Below are positions 1 through 27,018 of a stretch of DNA of 27,991 nt, in pieces; position 1 is the stretch's first letter, and every line of letters begins with the position of its first letter. The DNA is from a virus. The position numbers were made by a program, and so were the translations under genes. Location of the stretch: the UHGV virus genome UHGV-0114978; one strand, given 5' to 3'. The notes beneath the pieces are model-generated. The model saw only the letters and a list, made by a program, of their open reading frames with translations, was not told the origin of the DNA and did no database searches.

Positions 1-2
1 CT

Positions 3-731
3 GGTAGCAACGTTGTACTGCCAGCAGAAGAAGCGGAAGAACTGGCACGAATTGCGCTGGCATCGCTGGAAGCAGAGCCGATAGGTTTCCGTTGCAGGCG
101 CAATGATAACCTTGGTGACTGGAGTTACGTATATCATCGAGAGCCAGATGATTTTGAGCGCAAACATTTAGTGATAGAGGGCATTTACGCCGCCCCTCCA
201 GCGCCAGTAGTACCGGAAGAAAAACCAATTCCTAATCCTCTTAGCATGTACGCGGTTGATGCGGTTGCCGCTATTGCAGAGGTAAGAGGCTGGAACGCCT
301 GCCGCGCTGCCATGCTTCATAGTGCCGAACCTGCAAGTAATCATGAAGAGTTGCCGCTTGATTATCGCCAAGGTCAAAAAGATGGTCTTGAATGGGCTGC
401 GCAGCTTGCAGAAGCAAATCACCCACAAACTGGCGACTGGCTTTACGATGACCCGCTGGAGCTGGCTAAAGCTATCAGAAAAGGTCCTGACATGCCCGAA
501 TTCGATGGACCAACTCCGGTAACTCCGGATGGTTGGATAAGCTGTAGTGAGCGAATGCCGGAAGAAACGGGTGACATTATTGTTGTTTCGGATGGCATTG
601 TAATGTCCGGGATTTCTTATTCTCGTCGTGACGGGTTCTATATAGCCGCATTGGAGTACGACGACGATGAACCAATTGGCGGTGTAACCCACTGGATGCC
701 ACTACCAGAACCGCCGCAGGAGGTGAAGTGA
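3..731 (+). CDS. Ea22-like early protein, 5' truncated at window edge; C-terminal DUF551-like domain
   Basis: Reading frame is open from base 3 with no upstream stop (the track starts at GTG 171). C-terminal block GWISCSERMPEE...HWMPLPEPP looks like the DUF551 domain of lambdoid Ea22-type proteins. Position upstream of xis matches the lambda early-left region. Confidence 0.5.
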   Translation, partial: GSNVVLPAEEAEELARIALASLEAEPIGFRCRRNDNLGDWSYVYHREPDDFERKHLVIEGIYAAPPAPVVPEEKPIPNPLSMYAVDAVAAIAEVRGWNACRAAMLHSAEPASNHEELPLDYRQGQKDGLEWAAQLAEANHPQTGDWLYDDPLELAKAIRKGPDMPEFDGPTPVTPDGWISCSERMPEETGDIIVVSDGIVMSGISYSRRDGFYIAALEYDDDEPIGGVTHWMPLPEPPQEVK

Positions 732-1009
732 TGGACTCCTTCGCGAAATATACGATTATTGACTGGATAGCATTCCTTCAGGTTTTGCTCATCTGGTTTT
801 ATATGGCTTACAGGAGTGGACAGTGGATTGTCAGTGTAGCCTGTAGCAAGGGATGGCGTTGGTGGAACCGAAAGAATAAAAAAGCACTGGCATTGGATTC
901 GTTTTACGAAGCATTCAATCTTAACAGCCTTCAGCCTGGTTCTGTCATTGTAGTCACCACTCAAAGTGGCATGACCATTCAGATTCATAAACCAAAAGAG
1001 GAAAAATGA
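728..1009 (+). CDS. hypothetical early-region protein (93 aa) with one hydrophobic segment
   Basis: ORF start overlaps the upstream stop (ATGA); hydrophobic stretch IIDWIAFLQVLLIWFYMAY; sits in the lambda-like b2/early-left region. Confidence 0.4.
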   Translation: MMDSFAKYTIIDWIAFLQVLLIWFYMAYRSGQWIVSVACSKGWRWWNRKNKKALALDSFYEAFNLNSLQPGSVIVVTTQSGMTIQIHKPKEEK

Positions 1010-1095
1010 TGTGGCCTATATGTGTTAATTGCGGACGGATGTGCCTATCTGGATGGTGCCGAAAGTGCGACAAATGCACGAAGCAAAGACAATAA
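1006..1095 (+). CDS. candidate 29-aa Cys-rich mini-protein (MMWPICVNCGRMCLSGWCRKCDKCTKQRQ)
   Basis: Strong SD AGAGGA 5 nt upstream of ATG 1006; start overlaps the stop of the preceding ORF; 6 Cys in 29 aa in CxxC-like spacing. Too short for the ORF track. Confidence 0.25.
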   Translation: MMWPICVNCGRMCLSGWCRKCDKCTKQRQ

Positions 1096-1166
1096 CAATC
1101 CTCGCACTCGCGGGGATTTCTTTTATCTGAACTCGCTACGGCGGGTTTTGTTTTATGGAGATGATT

Positions 1167-1466
1167 ATGGCTTGTTCAACATTCAACCCTTTAACGTTAC
1201 AGAAATACCATCCAGACCCTGAAGATTTATGCTCACTGTGTGGCGGAAATCATGGTAAAGCCGCCATGATCGAATGTAAGGACAAAATCCACATATGCCT
1301 TAATTGCGTTGATGTCCTCGTTGATATCAAAAATGAAAGAGAAGATAAAAATCGTAGCGAGGCTATTCGCGCCTTAGATTCATGGATGCGAGATGGGTAT
1401 AGTGCTGCGCAAATTTATGACTTAGCCATTTCAAAAGGCGAAATACCAGGTGTGCGAATCGAATAA
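1167..1466 (+). CDS. zinc-ribbon protein (CxxC-x19-CxxC), possibly Ea8.5-like
   Basis: Track ORF 1155..1466; GGAG sits 8 nt before ATG 1167 (MACSTFNPL...). Motifs CSLCGG and CLNC suggest a Zn-binding ribbon. Ea8.5 naming is by position and Zn-binding character only. Confidence 0.5.
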   Translation: MACSTFNPLTLQKYHPDPEDLCSLCGGNHGKAAMIECKDKIHICLNCVDVLVDIKNEREDKNRSEAIRALDSWMRDGYSAAQIYDLAISKGEIPGVRIE

Positions 1467-1486
1467 GAAGCGCACTCAAGCATCTT

Positions 1487-1669
1487 TTGGGGAAATCACA
1501 AATGCACTTCCGAGTCACAGGTGAATGGAATGGAGAGCCATTCAACAGAGTTATCGAATCTGAGAACATCAACGACTGCTACGACCACTGGATGATATGG
1601 GCGCAGATAGCACATGCAGAAGTAACCAATATTCAAATTGAAGAACTGAAAGAACACCAAGCCGCCTGA
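1487..1669 (+). CDS. hypothetical 60-aa protein immediately upstream of xis
   Basis: ORF ends 39 nt before xis, the same spacing I recall for the small ORF upstream of xis in lambda; its stop codon lies inside the terminator hairpin loop. Confidence 0.45.
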   Translation: MGKSQMHFRVTGEWNGEPFNRVIESENINDCYDHWMIWAQIAHAEVTNIQIEELKEHQAA

Positions 1670-1682
1670 TGGCGGTTTTTTC
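1661..1682 (+). terminator. intrinsic terminator-like hairpin GCCGCC-TGAT-GGCGG followed by TTTTTT
   Basis: Perfect GC stem plus T-run read directly from the sequence; lies between the 60-aa ORF and xis. Confidence 0.6.
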
Positions 1683-1708
1683 TTGCGTGTAATTGCGGAG
1701 ACTTTGCG

Positions 1709-1927
1709 ATGTACTTGACACTTCAGGAGTGGAACGCACGCCAGCGACGCCCAAGAAGCCTTGAAACAGTTCGTCGATGGGTGCGCGAATGCAGGATATT
1801 CCCTCCTCCGGTTAAGGATGGAAGAGAGTATCTGTTCCACGAATCAGCGGTAAAGGTTGACTTAAATCGACCAGTAACAGGTAGCCTTTTGAAGAGGATC
1901 AGAAATGGGAAGAAGGCGAAGTCATGA
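1709..1927 (+). CDS. xis: excisionase Xis (lambda-type, 72 aa)
   Basis: Translation MYLTLQEWNARQRRPRSLETVRRWVRECRIFPPPVKDGREYLFHE... matches lambda Xis as I recall it over the full length; 23-nt overlap with int as in lambda. Confidence 0.93.
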   Translation: MYLTLQEWNARQRRPRSLETVRRWVRECRIFPPPVKDGREYLFHESAVKVDLNRPVTGSLLKRIRNGKKAKS

Positions 1928-2975
1928 GCGCCGGGATTTACCCCCTAACCTTTATATAAGAAACAATGGATATTACTGCTACAGGGACCCAAGGACGGGT
2001 AAAGAGTTTGGATTAGGCAGAGACAGGCGAATCGCAATCACTGAAGCCATACAGGCCAACATTGAGTTATTTTCAGGACACAAACACAAGCCTCTGACAG
2101 CGAGAATCAACAGTGATAATTCCGTTACGCTACATTCATGGCTTGATCGCTACGAAAAAATCCTGGCCAGCAGAGGAATCAAGCAGAAGACACTCATAAA
2201 TTACATGAGCAAAATTAAAGCAATAAGGAGGGGGCTGCCTGATGCTCCACTTGAAGACATCACCACAAAAGAAATTGCGGCAATGCTCAATGGATACATA
2301 GACGAGGGCAAGGCGGCGTCAGCCAAGTTAATCAGATCAACACTGAGCGATGCATTCCGAGAGGCAATAGCTGAAGGCCATATAACAACAAACCCTGTCG
2401 CTGCCACTCGCGCAGCAAAATCAGAGGTAAGGAGATCAAGACTTACGGCTGACGAATACCTGAAAATTTATCAAGCAGCAGAATCATCACCATGTTGGCT
2501 CAGACTTGCAATGGAACTGGCTGTTGTTACCGGGCAGCGAGTTGGGGATTTATGCGAAATGAAGTGGTCTGATATCGTAGATGGATATCTTTATGTCGAG
2601 CAAAGCAAAACAGGCGTAAAAATTGCCATCCCTACAACATTGCATGTTGATGCTCTCGGGATATCAATGAAGGAAACACTTGATAAATGCAAAGAGATTC
2701 TTGGCGGAGAAACCATAATTGCATCTACTCGTCGTGAACCGCTTTCATCCGGCACAGTATCAAGGTATTTTATGCGCGCACGAAAAGCATCAGGTCTTTC
2801 CTTCGAAGGGGATCCGCCTACCTTTCACGAGTTGCGCAGTTTGTCTGCAAGACTCTATGAGAAGCAGATAAGCGATAAGTTTGCTCAACATCTTCTCGGG
2901 CATAAGTCGGACACCATGGCATCACAGTATCGTGATGACAGAGGCAGGGAGTGGGACAAAATTGAAATCAAATAA
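1905..2975 (+). CDS. int: tyrosine integrase Int (lambda-type, 356 aa)
   Basis: MGRRRSHERRDLPPNLYIRNNGYYCYRDPRTGKEFGLGRD... is near-identical to lambda Int from memory (I see only a few substitutions). C-terminal catalytic region with HELRSLSARLYE and HLLGHKSDTMASQY (catalytic Tyr) is present. Confidence 0.97.
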   Translation: MGRRRSHERRDLPPNLYIRNNGYYCYRDPRTGKEFGLGRDRRIAITEAIQANIELFSGHKHKPLTARINSDNSVTLHSWLDRYEKILASRGIKQKTLINYMSKIKAIRRGLPDAPLEDITTKEIAAMLNGYIDEGKAASAKLIRSTLSDAFREAIAEGHITTNPVAATRAAKSEVRRSRLTADEYLKIYQAAESSPCWLRLAMELAVVTGQRVGDLCEMKWSDIVDGYLYVEQSKTGVKIAIPTTLHVDALGISMKETLDKCKEILGGETIIASTRREPLSSGTVSRYFMRARKASGLSFEGDPPTFHELRSLSARLYEKQISDKFAQHLLGHKSDTMASQYRDDRGREWDKIEIK

Positions 2976-3210
2976 TGATTTTATTTTGACTGATAGTGAC
3001 CTGTTCGTTGCAACAAATTGATAAGCAATGCTTTTTTATAATGCCAACTTAGTATAAAAAAGCTGAACGTGAAACATTAAAAACCATTAATATCAATGTG
3101 TTACAATATCTTTAGTCTAAAAAATAGACTGCATAATGCTACAAAACACAACATATCCAGTCACTATGAATCAACCACTTAGATGGTATTAGTGACCTGT
3201 AACAGAGCAT
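2976..3210. other. attP attachment site; 15-bp core TTAGTATAAAAAAGC at 3049..3063 (reverse complement of lambda core GCTTTTTTATACTAA), flanked by P' arm (2976-3048) and P arm (3064-~3210)
   Basis: Core is identical to the lambda core. The int-proximal arm carries arm-type sites (ATTTTGACT, CAGGTCACTATCA as reverse complement). The distal arm resembles the lambda P arm with divergence in the middle. Confidence 0.9.
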
Positions 3211-3211
3211 T

Positions 3212-3251
3212 AGCGCAAGGTGATTTTTTTGTCTTCTTGCGCTAATTTTTT
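3212..3251 (+). terminator. tI/sib-like hairpin downstream of int-attP (8-bp stem AGCGCAAG/CTTGCGCT, then AATTTTTT)
   Basis: Inverted repeat and T-run seen in sequence; position beyond attP matches the lambda tI/sib retroregulation locus. A second imperfect 14-bp hairpin lies at 3282..3315. Confidence 0.5.
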
Positions 3252-3351
3252 GTCATAAAAACATGTCGCACTCCAGAGAAGCACAAAGCCTTGCAATCCA
3301 GTGCAAAGCTTTGTGTACCTTAGTTTTGTTTCATAGGTAACTCTGTGTTAA

Positions 3352-3654
3352 CTACGATGCAAGAATCCATACCAATAAGCATCCGATAATTGGGAAAGAA
3401 AAATCCAATAGACTTCCCACATCCCACACGCGTGGATCAAAACCTCCCCACCACGGCATGTTGATACGTTTCCCTTTCCCAAACTTTTCTATCCAGCGAT
3501 ATTCTGCCTGGGTGTGTTCACGCGCAATGAAGAACGTACAACCGGCTATCGCACCGTAAGCCCAGTTTCCGGTAAAAAGACCAACCAGAACTTGTGCGAC
3601 AACAGCGCAAAGTGCGTGAAGAATTGGTGTTATATCAACTTCTATATTCATCAT
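3352..3654 (-). CDS. hypothetical small membrane protein (100 aa, 2-3 predicted TM segments)
   Basis: Hydrophobic segments (LHALCAVVAQVLVGLFTG, FPIIGCLLVWILAS) flank a basic loop; sits between the tailspike and attP, a position often occupied by lysogenic-conversion or moron genes. Confidence 0.5.
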   Translation of the reverse strand: MMNIEVDITPILHALCAVVAQVLVGLFTGNWAYGAIAGCTFFIAREHTQAEYRWIEKFGKGKRINMPWWGGFDPRVWDVGSLLDFSFPIIGCLLVWILAS

Positions 3655-3730: not shown

Positions 3731-5860
3731 CTATTCCTCAATACCTAACCTGCTTGAAACCTCCGGCATAACAGTAACCTGAAGGGTTTTTGATGAATCT
3801 GTGTTTTTAATTGCTATGCTGATATTGTCAGAAGTGCTGTTATTGTTTGACACTGTTATAGAGTTTGCATCCACCCCGAGTTTCGAATAAGCATCAGCAA
3901 AACTAAGACCAACACTTCCACCAACAACTCTATATGAACCATCAATTCTGAATGACGATATATTGTTATTGCTAACATCTCTAATTAGAACCCATATAGA
4001 AACGCCCCTGAAAACAAGGCTTGCCCCTGATGGTATTTGAAGTGATACAGTTCCTGTGGAACCGGGGGGGATACTGCCAGTATATTTAGTTCCGTGCAGA
4101 TATTTCCCCGGTAGATCTAAATACGAGGTGTCTGGCTGTAATAAATTATGTATATGTCTGCTATCTATGCTTCCAGACAGAACCATAGAATCATTTCCAT
4201 ATTCAATTATCCTTCCACCATCGTTACTTATTGTAAGTAATCCTTTGTTTCCTTTATTGTTTCTAACAGTTATATCAGAAGAATCCAGACGGACAATTGA
4301 TATATTTTTTTCTGTTCCATGACAATAATTTGATGAAATTTCACCTGTAACAAGTGACGTACATAAAATGTCTGAACTTCCATCACTGTCGCCAGTAATA
4401 GTGTTGCAGGAAATTAATGCACCATATACCAGACCTGTCGGAGATTCTCCAAATTGCTCTATAGTAATCCGTTTTGTGGTATTTGCTGATATGGTTATAT
4501 TATGAACATCGTCAGTTTGCGATGTTACTTTGATCCTTGATGAAACGGTATTTCCAGAAATAGTAACATTACTTGTATCATCCACCCATAAATATGACGA
4601 AAACGTATTACCTGATATGACTGAGTTACTCACCATTGAGTTCTCAAGCTCACATGAACCATAGCTATTGTTATGGTCATAATTTCCTATAATCCTTACA
4701 AATCCATTCTGGTTAATGAAGTTGTATGATGTTGCATTTTGTCCGCCATAAGTTGAGTTATGCGATGTTTCAGCATTTGTAACGCCTATATGTTGAAAAT
4801 GACCGGCATTTACAGAATCAGGAGCAACTGATGTACACCCTATTACTTTTGTGTTTTTGACAATTCTTGAATTAGGGTCATTCTCCAAATAATAGTTTTT
4901 TGCAACAAATGCCGTAGAGTAAAAGAAACCTTCAAATCTATTAAATAAAATCTGAATATCGTCATAATCTCTTTGGTCTTCATTTGCATAGCAATAAAAT
5001 GCTCTTGAAGACTCGGAGTAATCCTTGCATTTCTGAACGCCAGATAAAAGTGATCGGATTCTGCTAGATTTTATTCTAAATCCGTTGTGAATTAACGTTG
5101 CATCACCAACTAATGTTATTGGCTTAAACAATTCAACCTTATCAAAAACAAATTCACCACCATAAAATCCAAGTATAGCCCCTTCTGGTACTGCATTAAT
5201 AGCATTTTGAATTGCTACAGTATCATCTGTTATGCCGTCTCCTTTTGCACCAAAATCACGAACACTAATGGTGTCTCTCATCTTATCCTGGAACGTTCGG
5301 TACACAGCCCCAGAACCATACTGAATAAACCAACCAAAACCACCAACAACCCCGGCGATTGCAGCATCGACATAATTACGCATTGAGCGATTATTTACAG
5401 CATCCTGCTCAAGTGATGGATCTGCAAGGTTAGAAATTCTGTTTTGCTTTGCATCGTAATATTTTGCAAGCAGAGAGGGCTTCATCAATGCACGTCTGAA
5501 CCACCCAAAACATTGCTGGATCAGCATCGTCAGGTAGTCAAAGGCATCTTCATGCACTTCGGGGAAAAATTTTCCCTGATTGCGAAGGTCTGTCTCCTGC
5601 ACTACATCAAGCACACGATCTATCGTAATTCGCCATCCAGTAGCAAGCGGAGACAGAAGAACCACAGAACCGCCACTATAAGTGCCCGCCCCAGTTACCG
5701 TATAACCGGTATCCAGGACCAATTCTGTTACGTTCCCGTTCAGGTCAGACACCTGAACAACCAGGTCTGATTTTCTGAAAATTCGAAAAGTATACGGAAA
5801 CGATGTCGTAACGCCGTTACCGGTGTATTCGTTGTGGTCAACTTCGGTTGAGACCGTCAT
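3731..5860 (-). CDS. tailspike / receptor-binding protein with right-handed beta-helix (probable polysaccharide depolymerase)
   Basis: 709 aa. N-terminus (MTVSTEVDHNEYTGNGVTTSFPYTF...) resembles the virion-attachment domain of T7-type tail fibers. Motif DFGAKGDGITDDTVAIQNAI is typical of pectate-lyase-like beta-helix caps. GGAG RBS 8 nt upstream. Markedly AT-rich compared with neighbouring virion genes. Confidence 0.85.
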   Translation of the reverse strand: MTVSTEVDHNEYTGNGVTTSFPYTFRIFRKSDLVVQVSDLNGNVTELVLDTGYTVTGAGTYSGGSVVLLSPLATGWRITIDRVLDVVQETDLRNQGKFFPEVHEDAFDYLTMLIQQCFGWFRRALMKPSLLAKYYDAKQNRISNLADPSLEQDAVNNRSMRNYVDAAIAGVVGGFGWFIQYGSGAVYRTFQDKMRDTISVRDFGAKGDGITDDTVAIQNAINAVPEGAILGFYGGEFVFDKVELFKPITLVGDATLIHNGFRIKSSRIRSLLSGVQKCKDYSESSRAFYCYANEDQRDYDDIQILFNRFEGFFYSTAFVAKNYYLENDPNSRIVKNTKVIGCTSVAPDSVNAGHFQHIGVTNAETSHNSTYGGQNATSYNFINQNGFVRIIGNYDHNNSYGSCELENSMVSNSVISGNTFSSYLWVDDTSNVTISGNTVSSRIKVTSQTDDVHNITISANTTKRITIEQFGESPTGLVYGALISCNTITGDSDGSSDILCTSLVTGEISSNYCHGTEKNISIVRLDSSDITVRNNKGNKGLLTISNDGGRIIEYGNDSMVLSGSIDSRHIHNLLQPDTSYLDLPGKYLHGTKYTGSIPPGSTGTVSLQIPSGASLVFRGVSIWVLIRDVSNNNISSFRIDGSYRVVGGSVGLSFADAYSKLGVDANSITVSNNNSTSDNISIAIKNTDSSKTLQVTVMPEVSSRLGIEE

Positions 5861-5964: not shown

Positions 5965-5979
5965 TTACCTTTCAGGTAA
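5965..5979. promoter_or_regulatory. 15-bp palindrome TTACCTTTCAGGTAA (candidate operator), copy 1
   Basis: Perfect inverted repeat TTACC/GGTAA around a 5-bp centre; identical copy at 24146..24160, variants at 6346..6360 and 7390..7404. Confidence 0.45.
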
Positions 5980-6016
5980 TTTGCAAAACGTGCTGGATAG
6001 CAAACAAATTATTTGA

Positions 6017-6036
6017 TACTGTATAAATATACAGTT
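6017..6036. promoter_or_regulatory. LexA binding site (SOS box) TACTGTATAAATATACAGTT
   Basis: CTGT-N8-ACAG with AT-rich spacer, near-perfect match to the E. coli SOS box consensus TACTGTATATATATACAGTA; ends 19 nt upstream of ATG 6056 and overlaps a TATAAAT -10-like hexamer. Confidence 0.75.
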
Positions 6037-6055
6037 ATTGCATGGAGAAGATAAG

Positions 6056-6313
6056 ATGCAGCAGTATCACTATCCACTGGAAGACGGATTTACCGAAAGG
6101 ATTCACACGCCGGGAGGCGTCAGGTCACTGGTGGAAGGATCGCACTTGATGAAATTACTCCGGGATCTCGATAAGGATGGATTTAATGTCGATGGCCCAC
6201 TTGCCGAACTGACTGCACTGATTAACTACGTCACCAGCTCACAGATGTCTATGCGGGATCTGCAAACACATCTCGACTATTGTGCCGAACAATTACGAAA
6301 ACAAACCAGATAA
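6056..6313 (+). CDS. SOS-box-associated small protein (85 aa) homologous to the C-terminal domain of the downstream antirepressor
   Basis: Track ORF 6038..6313 begins at TTG; ATG 6056 has SD GGAGAAG 5 nt upstream. Residues about 34-80 align with Ant residues about 175-225 (by eye about 45 percent identity, for example LM.LL..L..DG..V.G..AELT...Y......RD.QTH..Y). Confidence 0.6.
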   Translation: MQQYHYPLEDGFTERIHTPGGVRSLVEGSHLMKLLRDLDKDGFNVDGPLAELTALINYVTSSQMSMRDLQTHLDYCAEQLRKQTR

Positions 6314-6345
6314 GGTTTGTAATTACCAAGTGGAGTGCTTATATT

Positions 6346-6360
6346 TACCTTTGCGGTAAA
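6346..6360. promoter_or_regulatory. palindrome TTACCTTTGCGGTAA (operator variant), copy 2
   Basis: One-base variant of the 15-bp palindrome, nested inside a longer inverted repeat GGAGTGC(6332-6338)/GCACTCC(6369-6375). Confidence 0.4.
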
Positions 6361-6451
6361 TTTACACCGCACTCCTCTTGTGCCATAGTAATCGGGCACT
6401 GGCAAAATCCAGTGCCGGGATTGGCGTCCCGGATTACTAAAAGGCGCATTC

Positions 6452-6471
6452 ACCGCGCAAGCGGTTTTTTT
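6452..6471 (+). terminator. intrinsic terminator ACCGC-GCAA-GCGGT followed by TTTTTTT
   Basis: GC stem with GNRA-type loop and a 7-T run, read from the sequence; sits 140 nt downstream of the 85-aa ORF and 160 nt upstream of ant. Confidence 0.65.
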
Positions 6472-6628
6472 ATGCGTATAGCACGGCCACATTCGTATTA
6501 TGGTGGGCTGTGTGGGGGCACCGAAAGGTGCGCCGGGTCCTTTTAGCCGGTTACGCCAACCCTGCACAGTTCACCACCAACCGATTGGCGTCGGTAGTGG
6601 TGATTAACCAGACTAAAAGGTAACCACT

Positions 6629-7324
6629 ATGACAGCTACAAAAAGCACGTCCATTTTTTCTTTCGAATCTCAAGCCGATATACGGGTAATCGTCATTAAT
6701 GGTGAGCCATGGTTTATCGCTTCAGATGTTTGTCGGGCTATAGGCATAGCAAACCATCGAGATGCTGTTCGAAAACTTGATGATGATGAGAAGGGCGTCG
6801 CTTCAACCGACACCCCTGGCGGTGAGCAAGAATCGATCATTATCTCCGAGTCAGGCCTCTACACACTGATCCTCCGCTGCCGCGATGCGGTGACACCAGG
6901 CACTATCCCATACCGCTTTCGTAAATGGGTTACAGGTGAGGTTCTTCCTCAGATCCGCCGCACCGGAAGTTACATTAAAAACTCGCTCCCGCAGGAAGAA
7001 CGCATAAAGATGGTTGCCGACCAGGTAGCCAACGCCACGGCGTCAGCAGTAATGCAGGCGATGAAGATAGAGAACAAAACCTACAGTGCCCCGCTGAAGC
7101 CCGGCTACCGCAGCCTGATTCATTCGCCGTCGGGTGTTCTCGGCCTGACGGAGAACTCACTGCTGATGAATCTGCTGAACCAGTTACAGGACGACGGGCA
7201 CGACGTATCGGGCGCGGCGGCGGAACTGACCACCATGTTCTGCTACATCGTCGGTGTGAGCAAATGCCTGCGTGATATCCAGACGCACGCGGAATACATC
7301 AACGACAAGGCAGGGTTCTTCTGA
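6629..7324 (+). CDS. antirepressor with N-terminal BRO-N (Bro/KilA-N type) domain
   Basis: N-terminal region FSFESQADIRVIVINGEPWFIASDVCRAIGIANHRDAVRKLDDDEK...SGLYTLILRC...FRKWVTGEVLPQIRRTGSY matches the BRO-N/phage antirepressor signature; 231 aa. Confidence 0.85.
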   Translation: MTATKSTSIFSFESQADIRVIVINGEPWFIASDVCRAIGIANHRDAVRKLDDDEKGVASTDTPGGEQESIIISESGLYTLILRCRDAVTPGTIPYRFRKWVTGEVLPQIRRTGSYIKNSLPQEERIKMVADQVANATASAVMQAMKIENKTYSAPLKPGYRSLIHSPSGVLGLTENSLLMNLLNQLQDDGHDVSGAAAELTTMFCYIVGVSKCLRDIQTHAEYINDKAGFF

Positions 7325-7389: not shown

Positions 7390-7404
7390 TTACCCCAAAG
7401 GTAA
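7390..7404. promoter_or_regulatory. palindrome TTACCCCAAAGGTAA (operator variant), copy 3
   Basis: Same TTACC-N5-GGTAA arms; lies about 27 bp upstream of ATG 7431. Confidence 0.4.
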
Positions 7405-7430: not shown

Positions 7431-7619
7431 ATGGAAATCAACATCATTACATTGCTGAAGGCCATTATTGGCGGAGCGGGCTTAGGCTTTGCCCTACCAG
7501 GCGGATTATCTTTCCTGCTTCCTGCTTTTACTGTTACAGCTGGGATAGCCTATGCATTTGCTGTAGCTGGTGCTGTTGCACTCCCTGCTATCTATGCCGC
7601 AAAGAAGTTAGCCAACTAA
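7431..7619 (+). CDS. small Gly/Ala-rich hydrophobic membrane protein (62 aa)
   Basis: Strong RBS (GAGGGGGAAAC before ATG); two predicted TM helices rich in G/A (IIGGAGLGFALPGG, AGIAYAFAVAGAVALPAIY); stop is directly followed by the next ATG. Confidence 0.5.
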   Translation: MEINIITLLKAIIGGAGLGFALPGGLSFLLPAFTVTAGIAYAFAVAGAVALPAIYAAKKLAN

Positions 7620-7620
7620 A

Positions 7621-7953
7621 ATGCCTGATTTATCTTGGCTTGCGCCCAGAGATGCACAGCAATTGACAAGGTTTTATTTCATACTGTGCATTGCTTATCT
7701 TGCTGTTCATCTGATATGGGATGCCGTTTGCAAAGATACGCCTCCTTTTTCTTTGGATAAGTTGCAATACAAGATGAATGAGGTTTATTCATCATCTACT
7801 TTTGCAACCAGCGCATTCTTCATTGTTATTCTGTTCGATATGAAGAATCCACTGAGAACTTCAGATGCTTTCATATTCCCATTAATTATTGCTGCTCTAA
7901 CTGGCTTTATGATCTCATTATCAGCAATAGTGCCAAAGAAAGTAAATAACTGA
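7621..7953 (+). CDS. hypothetical integral membrane protein (110 aa, about 3 TM segments)
   Basis: Translationally coupled to the 62-aa ORF (TAA-A-ATG); hydrophobic segments FYFILCIAYLAVHLIW, FATSAFFIVILF, FIFPLIIAALTGFMISLSAIV; followed by a terminator. Confidence 0.55.
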   Translation: MPDLSWLAPRDAQQLTRFYFILCIAYLAVHLIWDAVCKDTPPFSLDKLQYKMNEVYSSSTFATSAFFIVILFDMKNPLRTSDAFIFPLIIAALTGFMISLSAIVPKKVNN

Positions 7954-7956
7954 ATA

Positions 7957-7979
7957 AGCCCGCTCTGCGGGCTTTTTTG
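7957..7979 (+). terminator. intrinsic terminator AGCCCGC-TCTG-CGGGCT followed by TTTTTT
   Basis: Perfect stem plus T-run immediately after the 110-aa ORF stop. Confidence 0.7.
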
Positions 7980-8050
7980 TGGACGAAACAAAAGTCAGTG
8001 CTACACTCATTAACGCCACATTGAGGTGGCTTATAGATGGAAATTTAACA

Positions 8051-8212
8051 ATGAAAAAAGCATTTGCTGCACTGTTCGTTTTGTTGTCTCTGGTAGCTTC
8101 AACTCAGGCCTTTGCCGGTCGTTGTCAGCACGACAGCGATACTGCTGCTGACGGCTCCCGCTGCGGTGGGCGTTCTGCGGATTCCCGTCCGGGCGGCGGT
8201 GGCATTCGTTAA
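8051..8212 (+). CDS. candidate small secreted peptide (53-aa precursor with signal peptide MKKAFAALFVLLSLVASTQAFA)
   Basis: Internal Met of track ORF 7979..8212 starts a classic Sec signal peptide (MKK n-region, hydrophobic core, AFA cleavage motif); predicted mature peptide about 31 aa, Gly/Arg-rich with 2 Cys. Confidence 0.4.
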   Translation: MKKAFAALFVLLSLVASTQAFAGRCQHDSDTAADGSRCGGRSADSRPGGGGIR

Positions 8213-20111: not shown

Positions 20112-20162
20112 CTTCTTTCTCCATTAGTGGGTCTGTTACGACCCACAGGTTAATAACAGGCG

Positions 20163-24145: not shown

Positions 24146-24160
24146 TTACCTTTCAGGTAA
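24146..24160. promoter_or_regulatory. 15-bp palindrome TTACCTTTCAGGTAA (candidate operator), copy 4
   Basis: Identical to copy 1; preceded by a perfect TTGACA hexamer at 24124..24129. Confidence 0.45.
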
Positions 24161-24482: not shown

Positions 24483-24559
24483 GTGGCATTAGCTCAGTTG
24501 GACAGAGCAACCGCCTTCTAAGCGGTTGGTCGCAGGTTCGAATCCTGCATGCCACGCCA
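24483..24559 (+). tRNA. tRNA-Arg, anticodon UCU (reads AGA)
   Basis: Hand-folded cloverleaf: acceptor GTGGCAT/ATGCCAC, U8-A9, D-stem GCTC/GAGC, anticodon stem ACCGC/GCGGT with loop CU-UCU-AA, 5-nt variable loop, T-arm GCAGG-TTCGAAT-CCTGC, discriminator G, encoded CCA. Confidence 0.93.
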
Positions 24560-26351: not shown

Positions 26352-26944
26352 TGATTACCATCCTGACGTTCTTTGAGTCGCTTCCTAGCTGCTGCTATGC
26401 GATCAGCAATTGTCACATTCACATTAACATCCAGACGTTCTTTGAACGCGTTGACATCAACATGCTTACCAATCAGCTCAAGGTTCTTCACCTTGTCAGG
26501 CCATTTAATTTTTTTGAGGATTGTCTCTATCGAATCCTCGTTCATGTTCATGATGGTCGATGACAGATCAAAGCCACTAAGCGTAGTGCGCCAGATTTTC
26601 GGCCACTCGCGGATTGGTTTAAGGCTCCCATCGTCGTTGAGGATATCGATCACGTCCATCTGGTCGATCTCCACCAAGCGCATGAGAACGTAATCAGCAC
26701 TGACGCGCATTCGTTTGTTGCGCTCCTCCATCAACTCGGCAATCCGTTTTTGAATGCGTTCATCGCGCATCATGGCACTGGCTTTAACTGCCGCTGTATT
26801 TGGGGAGAATCCTGCGTTAATCGCTGCCTGAGTCTGGTTTTCAGGCGTTTTGATGTATGACTGGCAATAAGCCTCCTGCATTGCTGTGAGCGGCTTAAAT
26901 TGCGTTGATTTGCGTTTATAGGTTTTAGGTTCAGCAGGCATCAT
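26348..26944 (-). CDS. terminase small subunit (about 198 aa; the track ORF extends to 27022 but the N-terminal 26 codons look non-native)
   Basis: From MMPAEPKTYKRK...QEAYCQSYIKTPENQTQAAINAGFS the sequence resembles small-terminase DNA-binding N-domains; GGTGG SD before ATG 26944; coupled to terL. Confidence 0.72.
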   Translation of the reverse strand: MMPAEPKTYKRKSTQFKPLTAMQEAYCQSYIKTPENQTQAAINAGFSPNTAAVKASAMMRDERIQKRIAELMEERNKRMRVSADYVLMRLVEIDQMDVIDILNDDGSLKPIREWPKIWRTTLSGFDLSSTIMNMNEDSIETILKKIKWPDKVKNLELIGKHVDVNAFKERLDVNVNVTIADRIAAARKRLKERQDGNQ

Positions 26945-27018
26945 AACCACCATGGTAATAGTTACCGTCGTGGTAATAGTACCATAAAAAATAAAGCCGC
27001 CATAGTTGGCGGCAGTAT

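Follow-up and report, generated by a model that had tools for sequence, protein, structure and literature searches.

The virus genome UHGV-0114978 was analysed as one strand of 27,991 nucleotides (hereafter the window), which is an Escherichia coli prophage of the phiV10/epsilon15 type (genus Uetakevirus). Next to its tailspike gene, this prophage very probably carries two adjacent, separable antirepressor modules. Module 1 (5994–6313) would be the induction trigger, in which a LexA box (SOS box) directly controls ant1, the gene of a small antirepressor of 85 residues. Module 2 (6343–7324) would be a cassette of the type found in P1 immI and in Gifsy-1 isrK-anrP, in which a small RNA (sRNA), IsrK, and an antisense RNA, C4, precede ant2, the gene of a BRO-N antirepressor. 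A preliminary description of the sequence had joined the 85-residue reading frame (6056–6313) and the BRO-N gene (6629–7324) in a single LexA-controlled unit; both genes are present, and it is their joint control that we revise.

The LexA box and the small antirepressor Ant1

The features of module 1 and of the region just upstream are the following:

5965–5979, no strand assigned: O1, TTACCTTTCAGGTAA, extended as ATTACC-N5-GGTAAT, a putative operator of the repressor Rep in the divergent tailspike/ant1 intergenic region
5994–6022, plus strand: candidate ant1 promoter, −35 TGGATA (5994–5999), 17-nt spacer, −10 TACTGT (6017–6022)
6017–6036, no strand assigned: LexA box TACTGTATAAATATACAGTT, called from matrix score, uniqueness and positional conservation
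6056–6313, plus strand: ant1, 85-residue small antirepressor, Shine-Dalgarno (SD) sequence GGAG at 6044–6047, ATG at 6056, stop at 6313

A near-consensus LexA box had been reported at 6017–6036 and it is found at exactly this position, where 18 of the 20 letters of TACTGTATAAATATACAGTT agree with TACTGTATATATATACAGTA, the E. coli LexA consensus. A position weight matrix was built from 23 E. coli LexA boxes, the list of sites being drawn from the literature. On this matrix the box scores 28.1 bits, compared with 12.7–27.0 bits for the training sites, 29.9 bits for the consensus and 20.1 bits for the best site in 200 shuffles of the window, and the scoring proposed in the preliminary description as a check thus comes out in favour of the box. 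No further site in the window scores above 10.6 bits, and two CTGT-N8-ACAG matches, at 20133 and 24675, were rejected as extra SOS boxes (10.5 bits or less). The LexA box is also the only site of at least 12 bits in the whole prophage of E. coli SCZE5 and in the whole epsilon15 genome, respectively; because there is one such site per phage, these phages would have a single SOS input point.

The box was compared across 12 related phage loci from Escherichia, Salmonella, Enterobacter and Klebsiella (13 sequences when the window is counted). Each of the 12 has a LexA-like box, scoring 17–28 bits, at a distance of 39 nt from the small gene's start codon, and the box is retained across the four genera while the neighbouring bases vary. 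The lowest scores, 17–18 bits, belong to the Klebsiella phages, in which the left arm is degenerate (ATATGT). The window box shares its alignment columns with the box of Salmonella phage SPC32H, and a mutation of phage SPC32N falls in those same columns: the two Salmonella phages differ at two bases over 2249 bp, one of the differences being a C-to-A change in the CAG of the right arm. SPC32N reportedly makes its antirepressor, Ant, constitutively owing to one base change in the LexA site.

The proposed overlap of the box with the promoter of the small gene stands in part. A consensus promoter scan gave no sigma-70 site of at least 9/12 at the box, but a conserved candidate, in which the −10 hexamer would lie inside the left arm, does overlap it. 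Its assignment comes from conservation, the sequence CTGGA(T/A)A, located 17 nt upstream of the left arm, being kept in 13/13 sequences, Klebsiella phages included. An alternative ant1 promoter, TTGATA-17-TATTGC, was discarded as not conserved.

Ant1 matches chain E of Protein Data Bank (PDB) entry 5D50, “Anti-repressor protein”, over residues 2–84 (E 1.4e-46), as well as phrog_450 (E 7e-48), and it corresponds to gp19 of epsilon15. It is 86.7% identical (tblastn) to the product of the gene annotated as ant in SPC32H and SPC32N. No significant Pfam match was obtained for Ant1, and a word-indexed protein search with it returned close standalone homologues only. Judged by sequence, Ant1 and SPC32H Ant are orthologues, and so are their LexA boxes. 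The corresponding repressor was examined in the SCZE5 prophage, which is inserted between guaA and yfgI, is 99.9% identical to the window over 3400–27420 and has an ant locus 100% identical to that of the window. This repressor, of 194 residues, matches 5D50_A over its whole length (E 4e-42); in Pfam it contains helix-turn-helix (HTH) domains only, as in the two-HTH Rep type, and lacks an S24 peptidase domain.

Rep of SPC32H is reported to remain uncleaved during the SOS response and to be inactivated by the small Ant, whose gene is repressed by LexA. A review describes how, once LexA has cleaved itself, an antirepressor is made and inhibits the lytic repressor (PMC7380047, citing Kim & Ryu 2013). 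According to a second article, an Ant tetramer binds two Rep dimers, whereby the Rep tetramer that binds DNA is broken apart (PMC9638917, citing Kim et al. 2016). The step from LexA to a small antirepressor is therefore already known from SPC32H (Kim & Ryu 2013, J Virol 87:11775; Kim et al. 2016, PNAS 113:E2480). In the lysogen described here, host LexA would occupy 6017–6036 across the ant1 promoter; upon DNA damage, its self-cleavage would allow Ant1 to be made, and Ant1 would bind the non-cleavable HTH Rep and dismantle its DNA-binding tetramer, opening the lytic promoters, by analogy with what was shown in SPC32H. The earlier proposal that induction is wired to the SOS response through a LexA-controlled antirepressor, instead of through repressor autocleavage, is thus borne out by the Ant orthologue, the orthologous box and the absence of an S24 domain in SCZE5 Rep. 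Phage vB_EcoP_ZX5 (ZX5), whose locus is 98.5% identical to that of the window, is induced by mitomycin C about 100-fold, from 1e7 to 1e9 plaque-forming units (PFU)/mL (PMC9782041).

The Ant/Rep switch of SPC32H (PDB 5D50, 5D4Z) is accordingly the closest known system. The two loci share the genus, the position divergent from the tailspike gene, the orthologous Ant (87% identity), the distance between LexA box and start codon, the upstream palindrome and a Rep of the non-cleavable HTH type. They differ in the host, E. coli here, in Rep, which is only ~45% identical as read by eye from the alignment, and in the sequence that follows ant1, which in the window has no terminator of its own and is succeeded by an IsrK-C4-ant2 cassette absent from SPC32H. 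The parallel drawn earlier with Tum of phage 186 and with the Gifsy phages holds for the logic, which is also that of GfoA/GfhA/GftA of the Gifsy phages and AntC of N15: a non-cleavable repressor, a small antirepressor encoded outside the immunity region, and direct LexA control (PMC3121763). It does not extend to the protein, as Ant1 belongs to the distinct SPC32H Ant family; no sequence relationship to Tum, GfoA or AntC is detectable from its Pfam, PHROG and PDB matches (as opposed to a direct pairwise comparison), and there is no dinI-like partner gene here.

The IsrK and C4 RNAs and the composite antirepressor Ant2

Downstream of ant1, the following features were located:

6317–6345, plus strand: weaker promoter-like site TTGTAA-17-TATATT, just upstream of P_isrK, its −10 touching O2
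6345–6359, no strand assigned: O2, TTACCTTTGCGGTAA, abutting the −35 of P_isrK, with its centre at about −44 relative to the IsrK 5′ end
6361–6389, plus strand: P_isrK, −35 TTTACA, 17-nt spacer, extended −10 TGcCATAGT (promoter scan)
6396–6471, plus strand: IsrK sRNA (Rfam RF01394, 77.9 bits, threshold 50, full length)
6421–6427 and 6437–6444, plus strand: target copies within IsrK, b1 TTGGCGT (hairpin loop) and a1 CTAAAAGG, respectively
6452–6471, plus strand: IsrK intrinsic terminator, hairpin and T-run (terminator scan)
6496–6581, plus strand: C4 antisense RNA (Rfam RF01695, 77.7 bits, threshold 45, full length)
6539–6546 and 6553–6559, plus strand: antisense elements of C4, a′ CCTTTTAG (loop) and b′ ACGCCAA, respectively
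6585–6620, plus strand: C4 targets in the ant2 leader, b2 TTGGCGT (6585–6591) and a2 CTAAAAGG (6613–6620)
6629–7324, plus strand: ant2, 231-residue antirepressor with a BRO-N domain at residues 17–107 (Pfam Bro-N, E 2e-21)
7076–7306, plus strand: C-terminal domain of Ant2 (residues 150–226), paralogue of Ant1
7390–7404: third Rep-type palindrome, TTACCCCAAAGGTAA, preceding a plus-strand cluster of small genes

The antisense elements of C4 fit their targets exactly, a′ being complementary to both a1 and a2, and b′ to both b1 and b2. The a2 element includes the SD sequence of ant2, AAGG, 8 nt before the ATG at 6629. Among the seven phages that carry IsrK and C4, four sequence types are found, and the three copies of each element change together, in a compensatory manner: the b element occurs as TTGGCGT, TTGGTCT or TTGAGAC, and the a element as CTAAAAGG, CTACAAAGG or CTAAACGG/CTAAGCGG. 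The terminator that had been noted between the two genes is real as a hairpin followed by a T-run, but its identity is the 3′ end of the IsrK sRNA. A 37-residue reading frame with a GTG start, which overlaps C4 (6510–6623) and is annotated in ZX5 as “Ash family protein”, was considered as an equivalent of orf45 or icd and rejected as not conserved. No equivalent frame ending near the ant2 start was found in Tyrion, KpST512 or Kp4865-1, the frame has no PHROG match, and the annotation is probably spurious. Because the leader frame has no conserved counterpart, direct occlusion of the ant2 ribosome-binding site would be the simplest model.

The same arrangement is known from Gifsy-1 isrK-orf45-anrP-isrJ (Hershko-Shalev et al. 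2016, PMC4825925), where the promoter of isrK-orf45-anrP lies immediately before isrK, IsrK ends in a leaky terminator, G28/G31 of IsrK pair with C162/C159 of orf45, and IsrK supplied in trans raises anrP translation ~140-fold. These paired positions fall in the TTGGCGT/ACGCCAA elements. Both cassettes thus combine an IsrK whose middle hairpin pairs with downstream RNA, a leaky terminator, a structured RNA, an antirepressor gene and a promoter directly upstream. The present one differs in having no conserved orf45-like leader frame coupled to ant2, a′ covering the SD sequence of ant2 directly, and in its position, downstream of a paralogous, LexA-controlled antirepressor and in a podovirus cassette adjoining the tailspike gene. 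In the immI region of P1 and P7 (c4 RNA, icd, ant), C4 is likewise co-transcribed with its own target, duplicated targets stand on either side of c4, the product is an antirepressor and the loops vary in a type-specific way (PMC7313666, citing Citron & Schuster 1990). Unlike P1, the window has no icd, encodes a BRO-N/Ant-like fusion instead of P1 Ant, and has a Rep-type palindrome as the operator of the promoter. The operator next to the P1 immI promoter is the C1 site Op51. As a separate observation, well over 100 records of Stx1- or Stx2-converting phages contain a segment, unannotated in most of them, that is 77–81% identical to 6402–6604 (IsrK/C4); many Shiga-toxin phages probably have the same antisense-RNA-gated cassette.

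The promoter of the cassette is conserved together with its flanking palindrome. The P_isrK hexamers recur in Tyrion, Kp ST11-OXA245phi3.2 and TL-2011b; the promoter, the palindrome and their spacing are kept in six of the seven IsrK/C4 phages, phiV10 having lost the −35, and the block persists even in three phages whose upstream DNA is unrelated. O2 lies 51 nt upstream of IsrK in 6/7 loci, and 48 nt in phiV10, loci with unrelated upstream DNA included. The motif TTACC-N5-GGTAA occurs exactly five times in the window (0.6 expected), at 5965 (upstream of ant1), 6345 (upstream of IsrK), 7390, 24146 and 26962. O1, 38 bp upstream of the LexA box, keeps its place in 11 of the 12 related loci, its right arm being GGTGA in phiV10 and TL-2011b. 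The GenBank record of epsilon15 annotates the motif “repressor, lysogeny” and its sites cluster on both sides of rep, and they cluster around rep in the SCZE5 prophage too. From its sequence and placement, the palindrome is probably the Rep operator; the position of O2, centred at about −44 at P_isrK, is compatible with either repression or activation. The two remaining occurrences are found, as in epsilon15, upstream of the portal operon (24146–24160) and at the start of the small terminase gene (26944–26976).

The product of the second gene is composite. The C-terminal part of Ant2 is 43% identical to Ant1 (E 3e-16) and matches both 5D50_E (E 2e-13) and phrog_450 (E 6e-36), so that by sequence comparison ant2 encodes a BRO-N domain fused to an Ant1 paralogue. 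A BRO-N/Ant-like fusion also follows C4 in Tyrion and in three Klebsiella phages, and in these the Ant2 C-terminal domain is ~40% identical to the small Ant of the same phage. For the Ant-like domain, a profile search of 1.84 billion representative proteins yielded only 60 clusters, most of them standalone proteins of ~86 residues; the fusions surfaced only in this profile search. In seven of the eight longer proteins scanned with Pfam, the domain lies C-terminal on a Bro-N, AntA, Rha or ORF6N protein, and the eighth had no Pfam match. This distribution suggests that the Ant-like domain may be the repressor-binding module of composite antirepressors. No description of the paralogy between the C-terminal domain of a BRO-N protein and the small Ant was found in the searched literature. 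Ant2 itself is identical at 230 of 231 residues to ORF4 of ZX5, whose overexpression lowered lysogens ~1000-fold and rep transcripts by 75% (PMC9782041); that article mentions neither LexA, nor the small Ant, nor the RNAs. In phiV10 (4485–5445) the second module is in decay: a small deletion has taken away the −35 of the IsrK promoter, and a frameshift shortens ant2 to 194 residues, with the loss of most of the Ant-like domain.

One operon or two modules

The linkage of the two genes varies among relatives. SPC32H, epsilon15, BUCT554 and BUCT711 carry ant1 alone, without the BRO-N cassette, and in epsilon15 and SPC32H a hairpin directly follows ant1. TL-2011b, Kp4865-1 and KpST512 have 0.7–1.3 kb inserted between ant1 and IsrK, whereas 82–83 nt separate the ant1 stop from the start of IsrK in the window, Tyrion and Kp ST11-OXA245phi3.2. 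In these last three, the terminator scan found none between the ant1 stop (6313 in the window) and IsrK, and SOS transcripts would therefore end in IsrK, reaching at least 6471, or read through. The reading that had made the BRO-N gene a simple second gene of a LexA operon is not sustained, given that ant2 has its own conserved promoter, a palindrome and an IsrK/C4 layer over its SD sequence; a two-gene LexA module is further weakened by the absence of the cassette from four relatives and its displacement in three others.

We therefore favour two modules. In the second, the promoter flanked by the Rep-type palindrome would transcribe IsrK, C4 and ant2; a′ and b′ of C4 would pair with a2 and b2 in the ant2 leader and hide the SD sequence, while IsrK would carry the decoy copies b1 and a1 and end in a leaky terminator. 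The Ant1-like C-terminal domain is most probably the part of Ant2 that binds Rep. LexA would control ant1 directly, and ant1 only, its effect on ant2 being indirect, through inactivation of Rep at O2 or through read-through transcripts that carry IsrK. Several points weigh against this reading. The hexamers of the candidate ant1 promoter are weak, matching the consensus at 7 of 12 positions only, and conservation is what assigns them. The rep gene lies outside the window, Rep having been examined in the near-identical SCZE5 prophage. Clustering and a GenBank annotation are the grounds for attributing the palindrome to Rep, and its presence ahead of late operons as well is atypical of an immunity repressor: as a Rep operator the palindrome would put the late operons under Rep, or else another protein shares the site. 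Finally, transcripts may read through to ant2, which would give LexA some direct influence on it.

That the LexA-like palindrome has no SOS function, being an AT-rich palindrome produced by chance or an operator for some protein of the phage, is scarcely credible. The degenerate left arm of the Klebsiella relatives would fit such an origin, but the score far exceeds the shuffle maximum, the box is kept across four genera amid varying flanks, a single base change in it separates SPC32N from SPC32H, and the family is cited as LexA-controlled in a review (PMC7380047). A single LexA-controlled operon ant1–attenuator–ant2, in which the SOS promoter would transcribe both genes and the hairpin at 6452–6471 would tune their ratio, is quite improbable. 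It would agree with the common orientation of ant1 and ant2, the lack of a terminator before IsrK in the window, Tyrion and Kp ST11-OXA245phi3.2, the 82–83 nt spacing kept in three genera and the leaky IsrK terminator of Gifsy-1. Against it stand the autonomous promoter and operator conserved upstream of IsrK in 6/7 loci (the −35 being lost in phiV10), the insertions in TL-2011b, Kp4865-1 and KpST512, the four relatives with ant1 only, and the fact that the Gifsy-1 module works from the isrK promoter alone (PMC4825925); moreover, C4 would block ant2 translation under any promoter.

Two further readings concern the purpose of module 2 and are less remote, though we regard both as doubtful. One is a relay at the RNA level, which is somewhat unlikely: an ant1 mRNA ending at the IsrK terminator would carry the b1/a1 decoys, titrate C4 (or open an inhibitory fold) and so release ant2 translation, giving a two-stage, self-reinforcing induction. 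The IsrK terminator is the first after the LexA promoter, b1 and a1 are exact copies of the ant2-leader targets, and IsrK acts in trans in Gifsy-1 with the ~140-fold effect given above; on the other hand, the adjacency of ant1 and IsrK is not universal, their joint transcript is hypothetical in existence and stability, a protein bound at O2 could stop read-through, and SPC32H, having no module 2, manages with Ant1 alone. The other, a tentative possibility, is that module 2 works outside the induction of its own phage, as a device against other phages or for superinfection, Ant2 targeting the repressors of heteroimmune prophages and C4 providing type-specific immunity as in P1/P7 immI. Four C4/target types in seven otherwise similar phages is the pattern expected of immunity specificity, Salmonella has documented examples of cross-acting antirepressors (PMC3121763), the Ant2 C-terminal domain is only ~40% identical to the phage's own Ant1 in every case, and some relatives lack the module or retain a decayed one, such as phiV10 with its ant2 frameshift and lost −35. 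However, with ORF4 of ZX5, the equivalent of Ant2, both rep transcription and the lysogeny of ZX5 itself went down (PMC9782041), and the Ant-like domain argues for a target in the same Rep family.

Genomic setting and significance

The ant1/ant2 region is located on the plus strand, opposite to both flanking gene sets, the tailspike gene (3731–5860, minus strand) and the genes of internal virion proteins (from 9085, minus strand). Between the tailspike gene and 7324, ant1 and ant2 are the only reading frames supported by a family in Pfam and PHROG scans. The segment 5861–7430 is 95–98.5% identical to phages phiV10, TL-2011b and vB_EcoP_ZX5 and matches the chromosomes of two E. coli strains at 100% identity, and at least 80% of the locus is present in 238 of 5,426 complete E. 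coli genomes. P22 immI is also an antirepressor cassette beside a podovirus tailspike gene, with a layer of antisense RNA. The proposed equivalence of the two loci is upheld for this position but not for the content, as family scans found no mnt or arc gene here, the RNA is C4 and not sar according to Rfam, and the Ant protein is a different one. In P22, ant is dispensable for SOS induction (PMC7380047).

A lambda-type integrase had been described as part of the phage. The gene in question (1905–2975) was rejected as the phage's own integrase, its segment being the end of a different lambdoid prophage that abuts the Uetakevirus one; the Uetakevirus integrase, as seen in SCZE5, adjoins guaA. 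Positions 1–3400 comprise this excisionase/integrase end and occupy the place where SCZE5 has the holin, endolysin and Rz genes followed by yfgI, and the Uetakevirus part of the window lacks its lysis genes on the side of the junction. The junction was found in no complete E. coli genome of the collection and may reflect either the insertion of one prophage into another or a deletion or hybrid. Elsewhere in the window, the terminase and portal genes are separated by a transfer RNA (tRNA) gene (24483–24556; Rfam 73 bits), which SCZE5 has annotated as tRNA-Arg; it is on the plus strand, against the orientation of the structural genes. Downstream of ant2, a plus-strand cluster encodes small membrane or secreted proteins (7431–7619, 7621–7953 and 7979–8212), with a terminator after the first two genes (7956–7974); the product of the third has a signal peptide and matches phrog_14503, “membrane associated protein”. 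These genes are moron-like cargo and may be under repressor control.

Because the mechanism was already solved in SPC32H, the LexA-Ant1 part of the locus adds an orthologue and not a principle. Three modest points are new. In the members from E. coli, Enterobacter and Klebsiella, the first antirepressor is directly followed by a second one gated by C4 RNA, and no description of such an adjacent, paralogous antirepressor was found in the searched literature. The C-terminal domain of Ant2 is a paralogue of the small Ant. Lastly, the same domain is elsewhere found on four different N-terminal antirepressor domains. Together they give a concrete hypothesis as to which part of the BRO-N, Rha and AntA antirepressors contacts the repressor. 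A fuller scheme, which we consider unlikely, would link the two modules in one circuit: a feed-forward switch in which LexA cleavage leads to Ant1, with Rep turned off, and through the ant1 mRNA/IsrK relay to Ant2, together with an Ant1-like domain acting as a portable Rep-binding module grafted onto BRO-N, AntA, Rha and ORF6N heads. If true, this portable domain would explain the role of the variable C-termini in the BRO, Ant and Rha antirepressors.

The switch decides when phiV10-like prophages wake, and DNA-damaging antibiotics would act on them through LexA and Ant1. Close relatives infect or lysogenise enterohaemorrhagic E. coli (EHEC) strains of serogroups O157 and O103, and the locus offers a tractable system for how the SOS response and antisense-RNA immunity combine.

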